This document shows, piece by piece, positions 4,142 to 56,165 of a stretch of 64,000 nt of DNA. The DNA lies in assembly GCA_964291655.2 (NCBI GenBank), contig OZ219802.1:2336001-2400000 (forward strand), in the 5' to 3' direction. The notes beneath the pieces are model-generated. The model was given only the letters and a program-made list of their open reading frames with translations, searched no databases and was not told the DNA's origin. Numbering within the stretch: position 1 is the first letter of the stretch; every line of letters starts with the position of its first letter. A program made the position numbers and the translations under genes. The stretch comes from Chloroflexota bacterium. GTDB lineage: Bacteria; Chloroflexota; UBA11872; VXOZ01.

Positions 4142-4341
4142 GCCTCTCAAGAATTCCCTTTTCCCACTGGAATCTATTGCAAAGCCCTTTCCCCTTGATG
4201 GGGAAGTCCGGGTGGTGAGGGGAGAGATTTGGCTTCATAGCTAGAATTCGCAAGCTATCCCCATCCTTCTGGATTCCGGCTTTCGCCGGAATGACGGAGT
4301 TGTTGAGAGCTCTCCGCTGGGAGAGGGTTGGGGTGAGGGTC
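4142..4341 (-). repeat. Composite REP-A / IS-like end / REP-B element (copy 1)
   Basis: Reverse complement aligns by eye with 26887-27055: REP-A half, CTCTCAACAACTCC, GTCATTCCGGCGAAAGCCGGAATCCAG, spacer, degenerate REP-A. Confidence 0.6.
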
Positions 4342-8304: not shown

Positions 8305-10722
8305 TCAGTTATCTCGTTGGGGACGGTCGGTGCGCACGTCCCGCTGCACACTGACTACGCCGCCGACGCGTTCGATTTTGGCCATGAGGTCGGCCAGTCC
8401 GCCCACGCCGGTTACCTCGACCGTGAAGGTAATGGTGGCCGTGCCGCCGTCGGTGTGAACATTGGCGGCATTGATGTTGAATTTCTCTTCGGTCACGACG
8501 GTGCTAATGTCGCGCAGGAGCCCCGGTCTATCCATGCACTCGGCGCGCAGGGCTACCGGATAGAGAGTCTGTTGCTTGCTCGCGCGGGACCAGGATACAT
8601 CGGCGAGAGTACCCGGCGGGCCATTCTGACGCACGCGGCGGCAGTCGCTGCGATGGACCTCCACACCGCCATCGACAATGTAGCCCTTGATCTTGTCATT
8701 TTCCTGGGGGCCGCAGCACTGCGCCAGGTGAAGCGGCAGATTGCGCGCGTCATGACATAATACTTGGTCACCCCAATCCACCGGTACCAAGCGTTCTTTG
8801 TCCTTTACGCTGTGCACGTTGCGGCAGTCCCGGCGGTGTACGGTTACGCCCCGCCCGCGCGTAATGTAGCCGACAATGTGATCGCCGGGTAACGGCTTGC
8901 AGCAGGTTGCGAGACGGGTAAGCATGTTGCCCTCGCCCATCACCTGCACCGTACCCGTCGTCCTATCCGTCCGCGGTTCCGCAGGTAGAAAACTCGGCTC
9001 TACAGGAGCGGGTCCCGCTTGCTCGCTAGAACGACTCAGGTTCGTGACCACTTGCTGGGTGGAAATGGCGCCGTAGCCGATGGCCGCAAAGAGGTCCTCC
9101 GCCGTGTTGAAGGTGAAAGACTTGCACAACGTGCGAACGCGCGCCTCATCCACGCTGTTCAGGTCGCCCTGCCCCAAGCGCTGGATCTCTTTGTCCAGCA
9201 TGTCTTTGCCCCGCGCGACGTTCTCCGCGCGTTCTTGTTTCTTGAACCACTGGCGAATACGCTCGCGGGTGTGGCTGCTCTTGACGACGTTGATCCAGTC
9301 GCGGCTGGGGCCTTTCGGCGCCTTGCTCGTCTGAATGGCAACGACGTCGCCATTCTGTAGCTCCGTATAGAGCGGCTTGATTTGGCCGTTGATCTTGGCG
9401 CCGATGCACCGGTGTCCCACGTCGGTATGAATGCGATAGGCAAAGTCGATGGGCGTGGAACCGGCGGGCAGATCTTTCACATCTCCACGCGGGGTGAACA
9501 CAAAGACCTGGTCCTCGAAGATGTCGGCCTTGACGGTCTCAACGAAATCTCGCGCGCTCGAAAGCTCTTCTTGCCAGGTCAGCAACTGGCGTAGCCAGGC
9601 CAGACGTTCTTCCACGTTGCCACCCCGCGCTCCCTCTTTGTAGCGCCAATGGGCGGCGACGCCCAGTTCAGCTTCCTGGTGCATGTGCTGGGTACGGAGC
9701 TGCACTTCCACCGGCTGGCCGCGCGGCCCCATGACGGCAGTGTGCAATGAACGATAGTTATTCGACTTTGGTACCGAGATGTAGTCGTCGAACTGGCCGG
9801 GTATCGGCTTCCACAGGGTGTGCACTAAACCGAGCGTGGCATAGCACTGTTGCACGGTGCTGACAATGACGCGCAGGCCAATGAGGTCGTAGATTTCCTG
9901 GATGCCCACGCCCTTCCGCTGCATCTTGAACCACGTACTCGTAATGTGCTTCGGCCTGCCGCTCACCTCTCCCTGAATGCCGGCGCGCTTGAGTTCGTGC
10001 GTGAGGGTTTGCAGCGCTTCTTGCAGGACTGTGTCCTGCGCCGAGGATCTCTCCGCTAAGGTGGCCTCAATCTGCCGATAGACATCCGGATGGAGCACGG
10101 CGAAGGCCGCGTCCTCCAACTGCCACTTCCAGTGACCCATACCGAGTTGATTGGCGAGGGGCGCGTAAATCTCCAGGGTTTCGTGGGCTTTGCGGCGCTG
10201 CCGTTCCGGCTCAACATAGGCCAGCGTGCGCATATTGTGCAGGCGGTCCGCGAGCTTGACGATCACCACCCGGATGTCCCGTGCCATCGCCAGAAACATC
10301 TTACGGAGGTTCTCGGCCTGGGTATCTTCCAGATTCAAGAAGTCGAGCTGGGTGAGTTTGGTAACGCCGTCCACAAGCAATGCCACGTCGTCGCCAAATT
10401 GAGTCCTCACGTCATCCAGCGTTACGTCGGTGTCTTCCACGCAGTCATGGAGCAATCCGGCGCAAATGGTGCTGGTATCCATGCGGATTTCGGCGAGCAG
10501 GAGCGCGGTGCAGAGGGGGTGCTGCGCAAAGGGTTCGCCGGACTTGCGTACCTGCCCTTCGTGGGCGCGGTCGGCGAAGGCAAAGGCCTGTCGAATGCGG
10601 TTGAGTTCCTGCTTGCGCGCGTCGGGCTCTCCGCTCACATACGCGGCTACAGACGCGAGCAGTTCGTCGACCGTGCGTAATTGGGTCTCGTCGGGTGACG
10701 TGGCCGAGTGTGCCAGTGCCAT
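8305..10722 (-). CDS. relA: Bifunctional (p)ppGpp synthetase/hydrolase (long RSH) with duplicated zinc-finger domain
   Basis: HD motif GLLHDCVEDT, KLADRLHNMRTL, YRSLHT, EVQLRT, TGS (DFAYRIHTDVGH), two CC..H..C domains, C-terminal ACT (DRPGLLRDIS). Confidence 0.95.
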   Translation of the reverse strand: MALAHSATSPDETQLRTVDELLASVAAYVSGEPDARKQELNRIRQAFAFADRAHEGQVRKSGEPFAQHPLCTALLLAEIRMDTSTICAGLLHDCVEDTDVTLDDVRTQFGDDVALLVDGVTKLTQLDFLNLEDTQAENLRKMFLAMARDIRVVIVKLADRLHNMRTLAYVEPERQRRKAHETLEIYAPLANQLGMGHWKWQLEDAAFAVLHPDVYRQIEATLAERSSAQDTVLQEALQTLTHELKRAGIQGEVSGRPKHITSTWFKMQRKGVGIQEIYDLIGLRVIVSTVQQCYATLGLVHTLWKPIPGQFDDYISVPKSNNYRSLHTAVMGPRGQPVEVQLRTQHMHQEAELGVAAHWRYKEGARGGNVEERLAWLRQLLTWQEELSSARDFVETVKADIFEDQVFVFTPRGDVKDLPAGSTPIDFAYRIHTDVGHRCIGAKINGQIKPLYTELQNGDVVAIQTSKAPKGPSRDWINVVKSSHTRERIRQWFKKQERAENVARGKDMLDKEIQRLGQGDLNSVDEARVRTLCKSFTFNTAEDLFAAIGYGAISTQQVVTNLSRSSEQAGPAPVEPSFLPAEPRTDRTTGTVQVMGEGNMLTRLATCCKPLPGDHIVGYITRGRGVTVHRRDCRNVHSVKDKERLVPVDWGDQVLCHDARNLPLHLAQCCGPQENDKIKGYIVDGGVEVHRSDCRRVRQNGPPGTLADVSWSRASKQQTLYPVALRAECMDRPGLLRDISTVVTEEKFNINAANVHTDGGTATITFTVEVTGVGGLADLMAKIERVGGVVSVQRDVRTDRPQRDN

Positions 10723-10741
10723 CGGATAGCCCTATATTGTG

Positions 10742-12472
10742 TCACTCGCCATTCGAACTTTGGTCAGCGTTAGCTGCCTGCAAGTCTTGCAGGACAAACT
10801 CGAGACGAGAAAAGCCGCCCCACGTATTCTCTTGCAACGAATATACCACATCAAGGGTCTGCCCCTGGCTCAGCCCCCGGGCGCGGTCTGCCATGTGAAA
10901 GCCGATACCCGTAATGGACGTGCCATTTAGCGCAAAAGTTGTGCGGAGGTGGTTGGTGCCGACAACTCGCGTACCACTCAATGCGAGGTTCCGGCTGAGA
11001 AAGCGCGGTTCCGGATTACTCGCTCCAAAGGGGGAGAGGACGTTGATTTCGTCAAGAAGGTTGAGGTCCATCTTGTGGGCCCCTAACTGACAGTCAATAT
11101 CTAGCCGCGGCTGCAAGTCGGTGGGTTCAAGCAACCGGCGCGCGTCAGCCTGCAGCGCATCTCGCAGGGCGGCACGCCGTTCATTTACAACCGCAAACCC
11201 GGCAGCCTGGGGGTGGCCGCCGTGGCGTCGCATGAGGTCTCCCCGTGCGGCAAGCGCAGCGGCGATGTCGTAACCCTGAATGCTGCGACAAGAGCCAACC
11301 GCTTCGGTGTCGCCTACGGCAACGGCGAGCGTCGGCTTGCCAAATTCCTCGGAGAGCTTGCCGGCCACCAGGCCGATTATTCCGGTCGGCCAGTCTTCGC
11401 CCTCGACCCAGAGCAAGGCCTCGTCTTGCTGGGTCGGTTCAACTTGACTTTGCGCGTCGGCGATGAGACGTTTCGTCTCTTGCTGTCGAAGCTGGTTGAG
11501 CTGCTGCAACTCTGCGGCCAAGACCTGGGCGCGTGCGTGGTCCTTTGTCGTCAATAGGTCGTAGGCAAGGCGGGGATGGGCCATCCGTCCGGCCGCGTTG
11601 AGGCGCGGGGCCAGCGCAAAGCCAATACTGCGGCTATTGATTGTCGCCGGATCCACACCGGCAACCTGCATGAGCGCGCGCAAGCCGGCATGCTCGGTAT
11701 CCCGCAACGCCGCGAGGCCCGCCGTAACGATTGCTCTATTCTCACTGCGTAAAGGCACCACGTCCGCGACGGTTGCAAGGGCGGCAAATGCGCGGAGTTC
11801 GGTAAGTGTGGCGGATACCGCATCGCCGACCAATCCCACCGCGGTTAGGAGCGCGCAGGCCAGCTTGTATGCCAGACCGGCCCCGCAGAGTTCCGGAAAT
11901 GGGTACTGGCAGTCGTGCAGCCAGGGATTAATGATGGCGTGTGCTGCGGGGAGCTCCGGTGGAGGCTGGTGGTGATCCGTCACAATCACGTCCATACCTC
12001 GTTGCTTCGCCAGAGCCACCGGGCCGACGGCACTGATGCCGCAATCGACTGTTACGAGCAGCCCAACCCCCTCCGCCTCAAGCGCTTCGATCGACTGGTC
12101 CGTAATCCCGTAGCCATCCGTGACGCGGTGCGGCAAGCGGACGACGACCTTTGCGCCGAGATGGTCCAGCGCCTCGCGGAGAATGGCGGCGGCGCTGATG
12201 CCGTCCGCGTCGTAATCCCCAAACACCCCAATACACTCACGGTTGCGCACTGCCTCGAGAATGCGGGCGACCGCTGTGTCCATACCCTTGAGGAGAAACG
12301 GATCGTTCTCCCGCACATCTTCGCCCTGGAGAAAGCCCTGGATGTTTTCGCGTGTTCTGTAACCGCGATTGAAGAGCAGTTGCACTACCAGTCGATTGCA
12401 CGTCGGCAAGGAATTAAAGAGCGTCACCGGAGCGAGAGGCGCTACCTGCCAGCGGTAGCGAGGTGAGAGCAT
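10742..12472 (-). CDS. recJ: Single-stranded-DNA exonuclease RecJ
   Basis: GDYDADG, TVDCG, TDHH, ATVADVVPL, PRLNAAGR, GGHPQAAG. Confidence 0.96.
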   Translation of the reverse strand: MLSPRYRWQVAPLAPVTLFNSLPTCNRLVVQLLFNRGYRTRENIQGFLQGEDVRENDPFLLKGMDTAVARILEAVRNRECIGVFGDYDADGISAAAILREALDHLGAKVVVRLPHRVTDGYGITDQSIEALEAEGVGLLVTVDCGISAVGPVALAKQRGMDVIVTDHHQPPPELPAAHAIINPWLHDCQYPFPELCGAGLAYKLACALLTAVGLVGDAVSATLTELRAFAALATVADVVPLRSENRAIVTAGLAALRDTEHAGLRALMQVAGVDPATINSRSIGFALAPRLNAAGRMAHPRLAYDLLTTKDHARAQVLAAELQQLNQLRQQETKRLIADAQSQVEPTQQDEALLWVEGEDWPTGIIGLVAGKLSEEFGKPTLAVAVGDTEAVGSCRSIQGYDIAAALAARGDLMRRHGGHPQAAGFAVVNERRAALRDALQADARRLLEPTDLQPRLDIDCQLGAHKMDLNLLDEINVLSPFGASNPEPRFLSRNLALSGTRVVGTNHLRTTFALNGTSITGIGFHMADRARGLSQGQTLDVVYSLQENTWGGFSRLEFVLQDLQAANADQSSNGE

Positions 12473-12515
12473 GTGTTTGCCTTATGGAGTGTCAATCAGT
12501 TAGCTTATTGCCTGT

Positions 12516-12524
12516 ATTATACCA
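12516..12524 (-). promoter_or_regulatory. Extended -10 promoter for recJ-rel
   Basis: TGgTATAAT on minus strand about 45 nt upstream of recJ start. Confidence 0.55.
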
Positions 12525-12830
12525 TGCGCCTCTGCAGGGACATGCTGAGCGCAGACTTTGGGACTAACGAACTTGACTTGAATCTGTATGACAAGTCAAA
12601 TCCCGCGCTGTAGTGGTGGGTGGCAGCGGGGAGTCTTTGGGAAGTAGTAGATGGGAAGCGGCGAGGTTAGTTTAGGGATCGTCCGACTTGTCAATCGTTG
12701 AAGTCGAATCGTGCGAAACACGCCAAATGTGCACTCAAAAAGCGCAAGAGCTTACACAAATGCTGCGCAAACCCCACACTAACCCCAAACTTTACGACTC
12801 ATGGAAACCCCTTACGCCGCTTTGAAGTTA

Positions 12831-12839
12831 TGGTATGCT
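12831..12839 (+). promoter_or_regulatory. Extended -10 promoter of cassette genes
   Basis: TGgTATGCT about 50 nt upstream of 12888. Confidence 0.45.
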
Positions 12840-12887
12840 AGTGTAAGCGGAACGGACATAAAGGAGTAAACGTGAAAGGATAGGATC

Positions 12888-13160
12888 GTGGCTGCCGCTG
12901 CACATCCTGCTGCTTCTTTGGAGGAGAACATCGCTGCGTACAATGAAATGCGTAAGGAGCTAGAGGATAATCACTTCGGAGAATGGGTGGTGTTCCATGA
13001 CCGGCGACTGGTTGGCTTCTACGCCACTTACTCCGATGCCGCCGACGGAGCGATAGAAGCCTATGGCGATGACCCCTATTTGATTCGGAGAATCAGAAAC
13101 TACCCGGAGCACCTTCCGGTTTCCGCCTTGATAGGGGGAGGCAAAGTTGCTCACCGCTGA
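12888..13160 (+). CDS. DUF5678-like small protein
   Basis: 90 aa; ELEDNHFGEWVVFHDRRLVG..YGDDPYLIRRI pattern; overlaps the protease start. Confidence 0.7.
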   Translation: MAAAAHPAASLEENIAAYNEMRKELEDNHFGEWVVFHDRRLVGFYATYSDAADGAIEAYGDDPYLIRRIRNYPEHLPVSALIGGGKVAHR

Positions 13161-13572
13161 CATTGGGCCTATGGACAAAGACCTCCTAGTCCAAGATGGC
13201 CCACAGATCGAAGTAATGATTGGTTTTGACACCAAACTCATGAACGCTTGTCCAATGCCAGCACTTCTGGACACCGGCGCAACTTACAGCTGTATTGACC
13301 TAGAACTTGCAAAGCGCCTACACCTCAAGCAAACAGACTCTCGGCAGCTTGTTGGGGCGCATGAGAGAAGAGTTACGCCTTTCTATATGGCAGACATTTA
13401 CATACCACAGTTGGAGTGTGCTTGGCGTGATGAGTTCGGTGGATTGCCCCTTGAAGAAAACGGGTTCAGCTGCAAGGTCCTCATAGGAAGAAACCTGCTA
13501 AGCAACTTGCACCTGCGTTACGAGGGGTACACTGGAAAAGTGCTGATAGAATTCCCCAAACCAGGTTCTTAG
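13147..13572 (+). CDS. Retropepsin-like (clan AA) aspartic protease
   Basis: ALLDTGATYSCID catalytic motif and VLIGRNLL; RBS GGGGAGG before TTG. Confidence 0.88.
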   Translation: MLTADIGPMDKDLLVQDGPQIEVMIGFDTKLMNACPMPALLDTGATYSCIDLELAKRLHLKQTDSRQLVGAHERRVTPFYMADIYIPQLECAWRDEFGGLPLEENGFSCKVLIGRNLLSNLHLRYEGYTGKVLIEFPKPGS

Positions 13573-13611
13573 CTAAGCCCCTCTCCCCCGGACAAGCCTT
13601 GGATTGAAAGA

Positions 13612-13629
13612 CCCCGCCTTCCGGCGGGG
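13612..13629. terminator. GC hairpin after the protease gene
   Basis: CCCCGCC-ttcc-GGCGGGG; no clear U-tract on the plus strand. Confidence 0.35.
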
Positions 13630-14067
13630 CGTGCCAATTGCCGTCCCAAGAATCAAGTCAAGTTCGTTATTTCCTAGTCTTTCCAGGTAGTAAGATCTCG
13701 CGGGCCCGCTCTCCTGCCGGCAAGTGACCATCATGGTTCGACGAGTGTTTGCAGGGCGTCTGCGTGGGTCGTAGGCAGACGCGCCCGTATGGCAGATCGG
13801 CAAAGCGAACGTGCCGCGATCACCGGTGTTGCGGTCTCCGGACCGATGGGCGAGGCACCCATACCAGGGCCCACGGCCCAATTCGCTCCCAGCACACGCA
13901 GGTGCGAGAATGGCAGCGCGCACGCCTCTCATGCCACGAATCCACCCCGCAAACGGATGCGTGGTAGTAGGCATAGTTTGGCAATCTATGCTATTGTCGC
14001 CGTATTGAACATGCTCTTGTCGTAGCAACAGCGTTCGGAGCGCCTCGTCGGAATTGAAAGGCAAGCG

Positions 14068-14961
14068 ATGCAACGAATTGCACGTGAAAACTATACGTAC
14101 AGTTTCGATAAGGACGTGCCAGCGATAGCTGAAATAGCATCCGGCGACCGGCTCACGCTTGAGACCCATGATTCCTCTACCGGACGGATCAAGCGTCGTG
14201 AAGACCTGGACTACTATCTCTCCGTGCGTAAGACCCGTGAGTCGAATCCGGCGTGCGGACCGGTCACCGTGCGCGGAGCGATGCCTGGGGACGGACTCAA
14301 CGTTCGCATTGAAGAGATTGCGCTGGTACCTCCCGGTATCCTGCGCTTTACGCCGGGGTTCGGCATTCTGGCCGACGCGGCAGAATCGCCGGCGATTGTC
14401 ATTGTAGACGTGCAAGGCGACACCCTCGTTCTCGATAACGGCATTTGCCTGCCTGCACGCCCGATGGTCGGCGTCGTCGGCACCGCGTTACCAGATCGCG
14501 TGGTCTACACAGCCGATCCCGACATCAACGGGAGCAATATGGACTGCAACAGCATTGCCGAGGGCACGGTGGTGCACCTGCCGGTGTGGGTGCCGGGCGC
14601 GCAATTCGGTCTGGGCGACGTGCACGCGTCTATGGGTGATGCGGAGTCGACCGGCGGCGCAATTGAGATTTCAGCCGACGTGACGGTGCAGATTGACGTG
14701 GTGAAGAATGCCGGCTGGGAGAAAGTGTGGTGGGAGACCGATCAGTCCTGGATCACGTACGGGCACGGCGAGACGTTGGAAATTGCCACACGTGAAGCGG
14801 TGGCGGACATGTCAGGGTTGCTCTCGCGGCAACTGAATGTGCCGTACCATGAGGGCTTCATGCTGATTAGCGCTTATGGCGACGTGCGGATCGGTCAAGC
14901 CGCCAACTGCGGCCTGGACGTGACATCTTGGGTAGAATTTCCTAAAGTAGCAAGAGAGTGA
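14068..14961 (+). CDS. Acetamidase/formamidase family protein
   Basis: NPACGPVTVRGAMPGD, PMVGVVG, GSNMD, LGDVHASMGDAE. Confidence 0.92.
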   Translation: MQRIARENYTYSFDKDVPAIAEIASGDRLTLETHDSSTGRIKRREDLDYYLSVRKTRESNPACGPVTVRGAMPGDGLNVRIEEIALVPPGILRFTPGFGILADAAESPAIVIVDVQGDTLVLDNGICLPARPMVGVVGTALPDRVVYTADPDINGSNMDCNSIAEGTVVHLPVWVPGAQFGLGDVHASMGDAESTGGAIEISADVTVQIDVVKNAGWEKVWWETDQSWITYGHGETLEIATREAVADMSGLLSRQLNVPYHEGFMLISAYGDVRIGQAANCGLDVTSWVEFPKVARE

Positions 14962-26886: not shown

Positions 26887-27055
26887 CACTCACCCCGGCC
26901 CTCTCCAAGAAGACCTTTGCAAAACTCCGTCACTCCGGCGCAAGCCGGAATCCAGAGGGATGTGAGTAGTTTGGGTTTGCAAGCCGTGAAGCTGTTCTAC
27001 ACCGACATGACTTCCTTCTCTCAATGAGGCGAAAGGGGATCTGCAACGCCACTCC
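26887..27055 (+). repeat. Composite REP-A / IS-like end / REP-B element (copy 2)
   Basis: CACTCACCCCGGCCCTCTCC, AGACCTTTGCAAAACTCC, GTCACTCCGGCGCAAGCCGGAATCCAG; homologous to 4142-4341 reverse. Confidence 0.6.
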
Positions 27056-43871: not shown

Positions 43872-44080
43872 CGTTCATCCTTCGACAGGCTCAGGACGAA
43901 CGGAGACGGACCTTTCGAGCGGGGACAGACCGTTCCGAATTGGGACAGACCGTTCGTGCTGAGGGCTAGGCGTAGCCGGCTGCGCGAAGCCGGCTTCGCC
44001 TAGCCCCTGTCGAAGCATGAACGGTTTTTCGCCAACGTACGGCGGTTCCTTTCACCCTTCGACAAGCTCAGGGCGAACGG
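43872..44080. repeat. Cluster of three REP-D hairpins (CTTCGACA.GCTCAG type), one interrupted by a 42-nt palindrome
   Basis: 43872-43903, 43950-44024 (insert 43964-44005), 44054-44080. Confidence 0.8.
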
Positions 44081-45885: not shown

Positions 45886-46063
45886 GTCATTCCGAGCGAA
45901 AGCGAGGAATCTAGTGCCATACTCTACGCAGTCTGCAGCCCCGGCACTCTAGAATTCTCACTGCGCTGCGTTCCGTTCGGAATGACATGTGTAGTGGTCA
46001 TATACGCAGCTACATCCATCGATCTTTCTCCCAAGTCTGTCAACGAATTAGTCGACACTTACA
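45886..46063 (-). mobile_element. MITE-like family 2, truncated inverted copy
   Basis: One end TCTGTCAACGAATTAGTCGACACTTACA plus inverted REP-B pair; other end missing. Confidence 0.6.
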
Positions 46064-48906: not shown

Positions 48907-49167
48907 GATTTCCCGCCTGCGCAGGAGTGACCTCCGGTAGCGTAAGTTTGCAATCCCGTATCGAGTACGGAACAGGTCCTGCGCTTGCCCGAGACTTTCG
49001 TCAATGCGGGTGCGGCGGTTGATGCTCGTCACTCCCGCGCCTCAGCCCGATCCGTCATTCTCGCGCAAGCGGGATTCCATCCGCTTCCCGCCAATTGCTC
49101 GCCCCCAAATGCGGGAGGACAGTCCCCGCGCGTCATTCTTAGATTCCTCGCTGCGCTCGGAATGACA
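48907..49167. repeat. REP-B cluster
   Basis: AGATTTCCCGCCTGCGCAGGAGTGAC; GTCATTCTCGCGCAAGCGGGATTCC; AGATTCCTCGCTGCGCTCGGAATGAC. Confidence 0.7.
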
Positions 49168-55924: not shown

Positions 55925-56165
55925 TGCAAATGTCAGGTAATTCGTTGACAGATTTGGCAGAAGAAACATGGGAGCAGAACTCTGTGCTTGCCTACATACA
56001 TGTCATTCCGAACGGAGCGTAGCGGAGTGAGGAATCTAGAGTGCTGAAGCCAGTGTACTGTGTGAAGCATGGACCCTAGATTCCTCGCTTCGCTCGGAAT
56101 GACAAGGCCTTGTAGCGCTTTCTACGGGAAAGCGAATTCTGTCAACGAATTACTCAACACTTACA
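55925..56165. mobile_element. MITE-like family 2 copy between ccmE and ccmF
   Basis: Ends TGCAAATGTCAGGTAATTCGTTGACAGA / TCTGTCAACGAATTACTCAACACTTACA; internal inverted REP-B pair; no clear TSD. Confidence 0.7.

Follow-up and report, generated by a model that had tools for sequence, protein, structure and literature searches.

We analyzed a compact element of about 1115 bp at positions 12560-13674 of a 64,000-nt stretch of a Chloroflexota bacterium genome (contig OZ219802.1, positions 2,336,001 to 2,400,000; this whole stretch is referred to as the window). The best explanation overall, which we favor on balance, is that the element is a non-autonomous cassette similar to the mobile insertion cassettes (MICs), and that it carries one member of a widespread two-gene module, in which a gene for a small DUF5678-related protein (gene 1) is followed by a gene for a retropepsin-like aspartic protease (gene 2). 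Mobility of the cassette appears probable from comparison with related genomes, and a toxin-antitoxin-like function of the gene pair is put forward more tentatively.

A preliminary description of this DNA, made from the sequence alone, had proposed a discrete, transposase-free unit of 1.1 kb with lowered GC content, bracketed by a perfect 17-bp inverted repeat that extends imperfectly to about 33 bp, and most of this was borne out. The perfect 17-nt core (TAACGAACTTGACTTGA) is present once in each arm, in opposite orientations, and no further match turned up in the window when up to 3 mismatches were allowed, with 0.04 expected and none of 100 shuffles giving two, so that the repeat is non-random. 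In a repeat search the arms came out 26 nt long and 88% complementary (Table 1), and the terminal repeats of the cassette can be put at roughly 22-26 nt; the outermost part of the proposed extension did not hold, the flanking direct repeats discussed below having been taken for part of the arm. A scan of 1.56 Mb (the window plus the 80 loci retrieved with the small protein, see below) using a 22-mer of the repeat at up to 5 mismatches retrieved only the ends of the window cassette and of one relative, L003. The cassette has a GC content of 0.513, below that of the two adjoining 5-kb stretches (0.599 and 0.604), and in all four genomes compared it is 0.51-0.52, with flanks of 0.60-0.62. Genes 1 and 2 are the only conserved open reading frames (ORFs) within the cassette. 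Neither of them matched a transposase, and scanning 43 large window ORFs revealed no transposase or recombinase. No Rfam family was retrieved from 12300-14200 at E<=1, no tRNA gene that could serve as an integration target was found in the window, and the cassette and its proteins had no match in a plasmid collection (DNA and protein) or, at the protein level, in a phage collection.

When the whole window was compared by blastn to four close Chloroflexota loci (L001-L004), the cassette was the only part that aligned, and in the 23-30 nt beyond its ends identity was 26-48%, which is the random level. For L003, the limits of similarity coincide with the inverted repeats. In the window, the cassette is flanked by recJ (10742-12472, minus strand) on the left and a formamidase/acetamidase-family gene (FmdA_AmdA; 14068-14961, plus strand) on the right, both reading away from it. 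The L003 cassette lies between genes for Fe-ADH and RidA/L-PSP. The loci L001, L002, and L004 are mutually syntenic; an unknown 472-aa ORF and an MFS gene lie to the right of the cassette and, in L001, a creatininase gene lies to its left. In total, the cassette is found at three chromosomal sites in five genomes. The L003 repeat is perfect over 25 nt (TCCGGGACTAACGTACTTGACTTGA, at 9644-9668 and 10737-10761 of that locus) and differs from the window core by a single A-to-T change, which is mirrored in both arms. The repeat arms have thus kept their symmetry during a divergence of 14-25% in the neighboring non-coding DNA, which argues that the repeat is functional.

The preliminary description had also stated that no target-site duplication was evident. 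However, once the termini were set by comparing the window to L003, near-identical 7-nt direct repeats were found to flank both copies. The window repeats (Table 1) are identical at 6 of 7 positions, as are those of L003 (GGAATCC and GGAACCC), which directly abut the L003 ends. With equally small offsets allowed, 0.5% of trials on random flanks gave repeats of 7 nt or more that had no more than 1 mismatch (P about 0.005 for each copy). These repeats are suggestive of a target-site duplication, under a criterion picked after looking and for sequences that are partly palindromic.

The most likely route, in our reading, is that the cassette entered the recJ/formamidase intergenic region by way of a transposase acting in trans, in the style of a MIC. 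Positions 12560-13674 would then make up a non-autonomous mobile cassette that lacks a transposase and holds a two-gene operon, with a promoter of its own, between terminal repeats. MICs are passenger genes enclosed by terminal inverted repeats of IS type; they encode no transposase and are mobilized in trans. MIC231 of Bacillus cereus is one of them, and MICs carrying qnr genes have reportedly been found. The window cassette shares with MICs its terminal repeats, the absence of a transposase, a coding cargo, a low or single copy number, its presence at several sites, and a possible target duplication. It differs from them in that its ends match no known parent insertion sequence or transposase, in that its cargo is a protease pair rather than a resistance or metabolic gene, and in that its mobility is deduced by comparison. 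The preliminary description had instead placed the unit among the MITEs (miniature transposable elements with inverted repeats). A passage of PMC4133298 names MICs as a class beside MITEs and gives the latter as multicopy elements of about 30-300 bp whose core lacks a transposase gene. Like a MITE, the window cassette is non-autonomous and bounded by inverted repeats; unlike one, it is 1.1 kb long, carries two genes, and is present once in 64 kb, and the MIC class fits it better.

Table 1. Features of the cassette and the parts of it that align to related loci (positions are those of the window).
Feature	Position	Strand	Remarks
Possible target-site duplication, left	12553..12559	.	AGACTTT; abuts left terminus
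Left terminal inverted repeat	12560..12585	+	GGGACTAACGAACTTGACTTGAATCT; perfect core 12565-12581; L003 DNA similarity starts at 12560
Non-coding 5' part of cassette	12586..12830	+	identity 78-86% to L003, 72-73% to L002; L001 retains it from ~12683
Candidate extended -10 element	12831..12839	+	TG-G-TATGCT; identical in window, L003, L002, L001
Mini-ORF	12872..12883	+	GTG AAA GGA TAG; not conserved, rejected
Ribosome-binding site of gene 1	12875..12880	+	AAAGGA, 7 nt before GTG; AAAGGA or AAGGGA in 4/4 copies
Gene 1	12888..13160	+	90 aa, GTG start; DUF5678-related protein
Ribosome-binding site of gene 2	13134..13141	+	GGGGGAGG; inside gene 1, 5 nt before TTG; read from sequence
Gene 2	13147..13572	+	141 aa, TTG start; retropepsin-like aspartic protease
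GC-rich hairpin	13612..13629	+	CCCCGCC-TTCC-GGCGGGG; in centroid fold; no T tract; possible transcript end
Right terminal inverted repeat	13649..13674	-	perfect core 13653-13669; outer 5 nt decayed (GGAAA vs GGGAC)
Possible target-site duplication, right	13676..13682	.	AGTCTTT; 1-nt offset from L003-defined terminus
Terminal-repeat sequence, form for repeat scans			GGGACTAACGWACTTGACTTGA
Part aligned to L003	12560-13669		88.9% identity
Part aligned to L002	12592-13635		82% identity
Part aligned to L001	12683-13663		82% identity
Part aligned to L004	12768-13141 and 13134-13174		82% and 90% identity

Both genes of the cassette are, judging from their relatives, real genes, because the related proteins share 62-92% (protease) and 78-92% (small protein) identity and the same start positions, and because the pairwise ratios of nonsynonymous to synonymous substitution rates (dN/dS) among the four DNA copies are 0.13-0.51. 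The two overlapping genes, the extended -10 element, and the 3' hairpin of the preliminary description were all recovered. Gene 2 lies in the +1 frame relative to gene 1 and overlaps it by 14 nt, and its TTG start agrees with those of the relatives. The candidate extended -10 element was not reported by a consensus promoter scan, which demands a -35, and we infer its promoter role. L003 has a stem at the position of the hairpin with a different loop, and the hairpin region overall folds no better than shuffles (z = 0.16). The mini-ORF said to follow a strong ribosome-binding site does exist in the window, but it is not conserved: its start or stop is gone in three relatives (L003 reads GCG...AAG, and L002 and L001 have no stop). 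Further candidates were rejected as well, namely a local hairpin in the left arm (TTGACTTG...CAAGTCAA, 12573-12599), which is absent from L003, and a minus-strand terminator-like site at 12775-12747, whose stem is lost in L003. A minus-strand ORF of 280 aa at 13573-14415, which runs antisense across the right cassette end into the formamidase gene and has no Pfam family, was treated as a GC-rich shadow ORF.

By profile, motif, and fold, the product of gene 2 is a genuine retropepsin, as had been proposed. It scored 35.6 bits against Pfam Asp_protease_2 (PF13650; cut-off 24.3) and 22.2 bits against RVP (cut-off 20.7), and it fell under the NCBIfam cut-offs for TIGR03698 (clan_AA_DTGF; 20.0 vs 57.35) and TIGR02281 (clan_AA_DTGA; 13.3 vs 57.95). 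The protein has an intact DTG motif (D42-T43-G44-A45) and a G114-R115 motif, and these residues are retained in nearly every row of a 65-member alignment (D42 in 64, T43 in 63, G44 in 65, A45 in 63, G114 in 65, and R115 in 63). Its AlphaFold (AF2) model, with a predicted local distance difference test score (pLDDT) of 90, has the retropepsin fold and retrieved 76 matches in the PDB at E<=0.001 by Foldseek, the top ones, at a probability of 1.0 each, being the RVP domain of Ddi1, the XMRV, EIAV, HIV, and FIV proteases, and APRc of Rickettsia. A sequence profile of the protease also reached DDI1 in the PDB (E = 9.5e-5). We take the protease to be cytoplasmic, because no signal-like hydrophobic stretch is visible in its N-terminus.

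The window protease resembles Ddi1 RVP, Rickettsia APRc, and Pseudomonas RloA in its fold and in its DTG and G-R motifs. In contrast to other bacterial and eukaryotic retropepsins, it is a stand-alone protein of 141 aa, taken as cytoplasmic, with a dedicated upstream partner gene. The RloA-type retropepsin-like enzymes of Pseudomonas, for comparison, are described as secreted (PMC12239564), and they differ from the window protease also in having no partner. In a quick protease tree (59 rows; the P0001-P0006 rows and seven partial proteases were left out), the window protease and those of L001-L003 form a clade on a very long branch of 1.72 changes per column. The cassette-borne proteases also have an unusual amino-acid make-up, with family motifs such as an N-terminal C-G-F and an H-L-A-Q-I strand replaced. 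Judged from these sequences, this protease sub-lineage is fast-evolving or functionally shifted.

The small protein encoded by gene 1 is more difficult to place. It had been called DUF5678-like, and this stands for the family, in which 28 of 117 aligned members match DUF5678 at E<=0.01 and P0016 and P0028 pass the cut-off, but less clearly for the window protein itself, which at 15.2 bits (E = 0.02) falls under the 23.2-bit gathering cut-off of PF18929. Given those 28 matches, gene 1 is best described, by sequence, as belonging to a DUF5678-related family that is covered only in part by the Pfam model. The relatives with tandem repeats bear precomputed PF18929 annotation. At E<=1e-3, a profile built from the gene 1 protein and nine close relatives retrieved 627 representative clusters, and at E<=1e-10 it retrieved 120; most of these are free-standing proteins of 76-110 aa. 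NCBIfam, PADLOC, and PHROGs yielded no family for the small protein, and in the Protein Atlas it retrieved unnamed clusters only, plus one with DUF5678 on 39% of its members (score 0.89). The structural model (pLDDT 77) predicts an alpha-beta-beta-alpha-beta core at residues 10-68, for which no solved relative was found by Foldseek against the PDB at E<=0.001 or by a PDB sequence profile (best E = 0.2). The core is followed by a C-terminal tail predicted with low confidence (pLDDT about 47-53), which carries the motif P-x-x-L-P-x-S. The motif residues are conserved across the family (P73 in 75/117 members, L76 in 84/117, P77 in 87/117, and S79 in 60/117).

The same small domain is found in 2-4 tandem copies in P0016-P0018 and P0165-P0168, each copy with its own Pro-rich linker; these proteins resemble polyproteins and could be protease substrates. 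It is also found fused to HNH, DUF6998, OMP decarboxylase, and Xre/MbcA-type antitoxin domains, a hint that this module can be reused, as partner or regulator, with different effectors. Among these fusions are an HNH endonuclease whose C-terminal region is hydrophobic (P0154), DUF6998 proteins (P0058 and P0172-P0174), and an Xre/MbcA/ParS-type antitoxin (P0144).

To place the pair in a wider context, genomes were scanned with an alignment of 22 small-protein sequences, which returned 80 loci. By record title, these span at least 8 bacterial lineages, including Chloroflexota/Dehalococcoidia, Latescibacterota, Alpha- and Gammaproteobacteria, Acidobacteriota, Verrucomicrobiota, Spirochaetia, and Binatia. 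In 65 of the 80, the small gene is immediately followed, on its own strand, by a protease ORF detected with the window protease profile (full length in 58 and partial in 7), so the gene pair that the preliminary description had pointed out is conserved. With starts picked nearest to the profile-expected position, the overlap is 14 nt in 33 of these 65 loci, 8 nt in 7, and 1 nt in another 7. Small protein and protease are fused in frame in P0170 and P0180; the fusion forms P0090, P0108, and P0175 are partial or apparently frameshifted. About 22 of the 80 loci have orphan small genes or truncated proteases. We did not use these as evidence for a toxin-antitoxin system, the loci having been picked on the small gene, which biases any count of orphan partners.

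Two genomes (OY760183.1 and OZ241365.1) have two modules each, and the neighbors of the module loci are mostly unrelated metabolic or housekeeping genes, with an occasional integrase, DDE transposase, Fic, or HicB gene. In the protease tree, the phylum labels need 16 changes where the minimum is 5, which suggests horizontal transfer of the module; 9 of the 56 inner branches are well supported, and the supported branches are compatible with a single origin per phylum. We would also like to note two loci near nitrile hydratase genes. In L007 (9077-11015, Arenicellales) the module lies between the alpha and beta subunit genes, and in L038 (9304-10683, Dehalococcoidia) it directly follows the alpha gene; either a recurrent insertion site or a functional link could account for this.

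No flanking inverted repeat above the level of shuffles was found in the other 76 loci. We read the repeat, from these comparisons, as the vehicle of this sub-lineage rather than a property of the module. A description of the small protein-protease pair was not found in the papers searched, and neither was anything on retropepsin toxins or on the function of DUF5678; the one paper retrieved for DUF5678 was an unrelated plant study, and the papers listed for PF13650 dealt with eukaryotes or HIV. The cassette type is known, and the cargo module appears undescribed.

As for what the pair does, our best guess is that the disordered C-terminal tail of the partner may sit in the cleft of the dimeric protease, either inhibiting it or serving as its substrate, because its conserved, flexible Leu-Pro segment recalls retroviral cleavage sites; a hydrophobic residue followed by proline resembles the sites cut by retroviral proteases. 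The pair would then act as a toxin-antitoxin or addiction module, a proposal that we consider possible and short of probable. It resembles type II toxin-antitoxin systems in being an operon of two small genes in which the stop of the first overlaps the start of the second, in its patchy multi-phylum spread with several copies per genome and varied insertion contexts, in the disordered and conserved C-terminal tail of the first protein, and in the fusion of the small domain to other partners. Unlike those systems, it would have a retropepsin as toxin, of which no example was found in the literature searches, and the small protein has no recognizable DNA-binding domain. Broader still, and rather doubtful in our view, is the proposal that the pair stands for a widespread class of protease-based selfish or immunity module, with the protease restrained by its partner, or processing it, through the Leu-Pro site, and that a transposase-free cassette has captured one such module here and carries it from one chromosomal site to another.

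The layout also recalls retroviral Gag-Pro, where a retropepsin gene likewise overlaps the 3' end of an upstream gene in another frame, in-frame fusions being rare here, and where a hydrophobic-Pro motif is likewise found just upstream of the protease. In contrast to Gag-Pro, the window protease has its own start and ribosome-binding site and lies in the +1 and not the -1 frame. The likeness is one of analogy and not of homology of the upstream gene.

Several observations weigh against the explanation of a mobile cassette with a toxin-antitoxin-like cargo. A cognate transposase, a second copy of the repeat, and an empty recJ/formamidase site were not seen, no dedicated genome search having been made for them. 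The repeat is clear in only 2 of the 5 related copies (the window and L003), the ends of L001 and L002 having decayed and L004 aligning only over the small gene and the first protease codons. The direct repeats are imperfect as well as partly palindromic and defined post hoc, and those of the window are offset by 1 nt. With the other 76 loci lacking a flanking repeat, the module would have to spread by other routes too, and in an invertible segment, recombination of one arm with the other would likewise leave a mirrored change. With regard to function, neither protein matched PADLOC-DB 2.0 (E<=1), PHROGs, or known toxin-antitoxin families in Pfam and NCBIfam, and the small protein has no detectable DNA-binding fold or solved relative. 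The neighbors of the module are mostly housekeeping genes and not defense islands, and 2-4-fold tandem repeats of the small domain would be unusual for antitoxins. Seeding the locus search on the small gene, as said above, skews the counts of orphan partners.

Among other explanations, a processing role for the pair competes seriously, in view of the forms with tandem repeats and fusions, and we assign it a limited chance. The small protein, or its tandem forms, would here be the substrate of the protease, cut at the Leu-Pro linker so as to release an active domain or peptide, much as polyproteins are processed by retroviral proteases. The proteins with 2-4 small domains (P0016-18 and P0165-168), the in-frame protease fusions P0170 and P0180, and the conservation of the L-P motif within a low-confidence tail are all in keeping with this, as is the 14-nt overlap, which implies coupled synthesis. 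However, cleavage is hypothetical, and the likeness of the motif to retroviral sites is a putative one. The fusions P0090, P0108, P0170, P0175, and P0180 were each found on a single contig where a count was returned, and P0090 and P0175 look frameshifted at the C-terminus.

Two further explanations concern the cassette and not its cargo, and we consider both less likely. In the first, which we hold to be unlikely, the two genes would be an ordinary, vertically inherited pair, the repeat a relic or an operator-like palindrome, and the differing contexts a result of genome rearrangement. This does describe L001, L002, and L004, which share one site: the L001 and L002 cassettes are about 88% identical and their flanks 82-89%, and since the cassette is as diverged as its flanks, it has been inherited vertically within these loci. 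The purifying selection on both genes and the 76 loci without any repeat also fit. Nevertheless, rearrangement breakpoints would need to have hit both repeat ends exactly, in separate lineages, and vertical descent does not account for a GC content 9-10 points under that of the flanks in all four genomes, or for a repeat core that stayed symmetric beside diverged non-coding DNA.

In the second, which seems to us improbable, the cassette would be an inverton, the arms serving as crossover sites for a recombinase encoded elsewhere, so that a flip redirects the cassette promoter toward recJ or the formamidase gene. Perfect inverted repeats of 17-25 nt do surround a promoter-bearing segment here, the L003 base change in both arms is the product expected of arm recombination, the lack of a T tract at the 3' hairpin makes read-through possible, and the genes on both sides diverge from the cassette. 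Against this, no recombinase was found among the scanned window ORFs, the flanking direct repeats are a signature of transposition, and an operon with its own promoter would not be switched by flipping. The presence of the repeat-bounded block at three unrelated sites, moreover, requires insertion and not inversion. An abortive-infection or anti-phage module, in which infection would release or activate the protease to degrade host or phage proteins, likewise seems improbable: the patchy multi-phylum spread with two copies in some genomes, the carriage on a mobile cassette, the integrase, DDE transposase, Fic, or HicB genes adjoining some loci, and small retropepsin-domain proteins beside archaeal type III CRISPR loci, one of which is listed in an archaeal CRISPR survey (PMC3973734), are set against the absence of any PADLOC match for either protein, of matches in the phage and plasmid collections or PHROGs, and of neighbors other than mostly metabolic genes.

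Other repeats were observed in and around these loci. In L004, at 10230-10470, only the first few codons of the protease gene are left, everything from there to the right cassette end having been deleted; the junction holds, after a poly-G run, a MITE of the GTCATTCCGAGCGGAGCG family, which has at least 4 copies in that 20-kb locus, and the small gene survives with an altered C-terminus. The window itself contains a true multicopy MITE family with termini GTCATTCCGARCGRAGCG (6 termini, with 0.03 expected). A complete copy of about 104 bp, with nested inverted repeats, lies at 56001-56104, further members are at 115-242, 45969-45986, and 49149-49166, and related copies are present in L002 and L004. 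Short intergenic repeats at 26898-26955, 4269-4324, 555-605, and 44006-44079 of the window recur in loci of related genomes (L004, L005, and L006), among them CCGGAATCC / GGCGAAAGCCGGAATGAC-type and GGGAGAGGG..GGGGTGAGGGG-type motifs.

To our knowledge, free-standing bacterial retropepsins are poorly understood, and we know of nobody who can name the targets of most of them. The co-translated partner with its flexible Leu-Pro tail would be a concrete candidate substrate or inhibitor for the whole protease family. The cassette, if mobile as we think probable, is a natural example of a small selfish operon packed between inverted repeats and moved without a transposase of its own. The overlapping frames and rare fusions, which by analogy recall Gag-Pro, may bear on the origins of retroviral proteases, with descent not implied. 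Should the pair prove to be a toxin-antitoxin or defense system, aspartic proteases would join the known repertoire of toxins.

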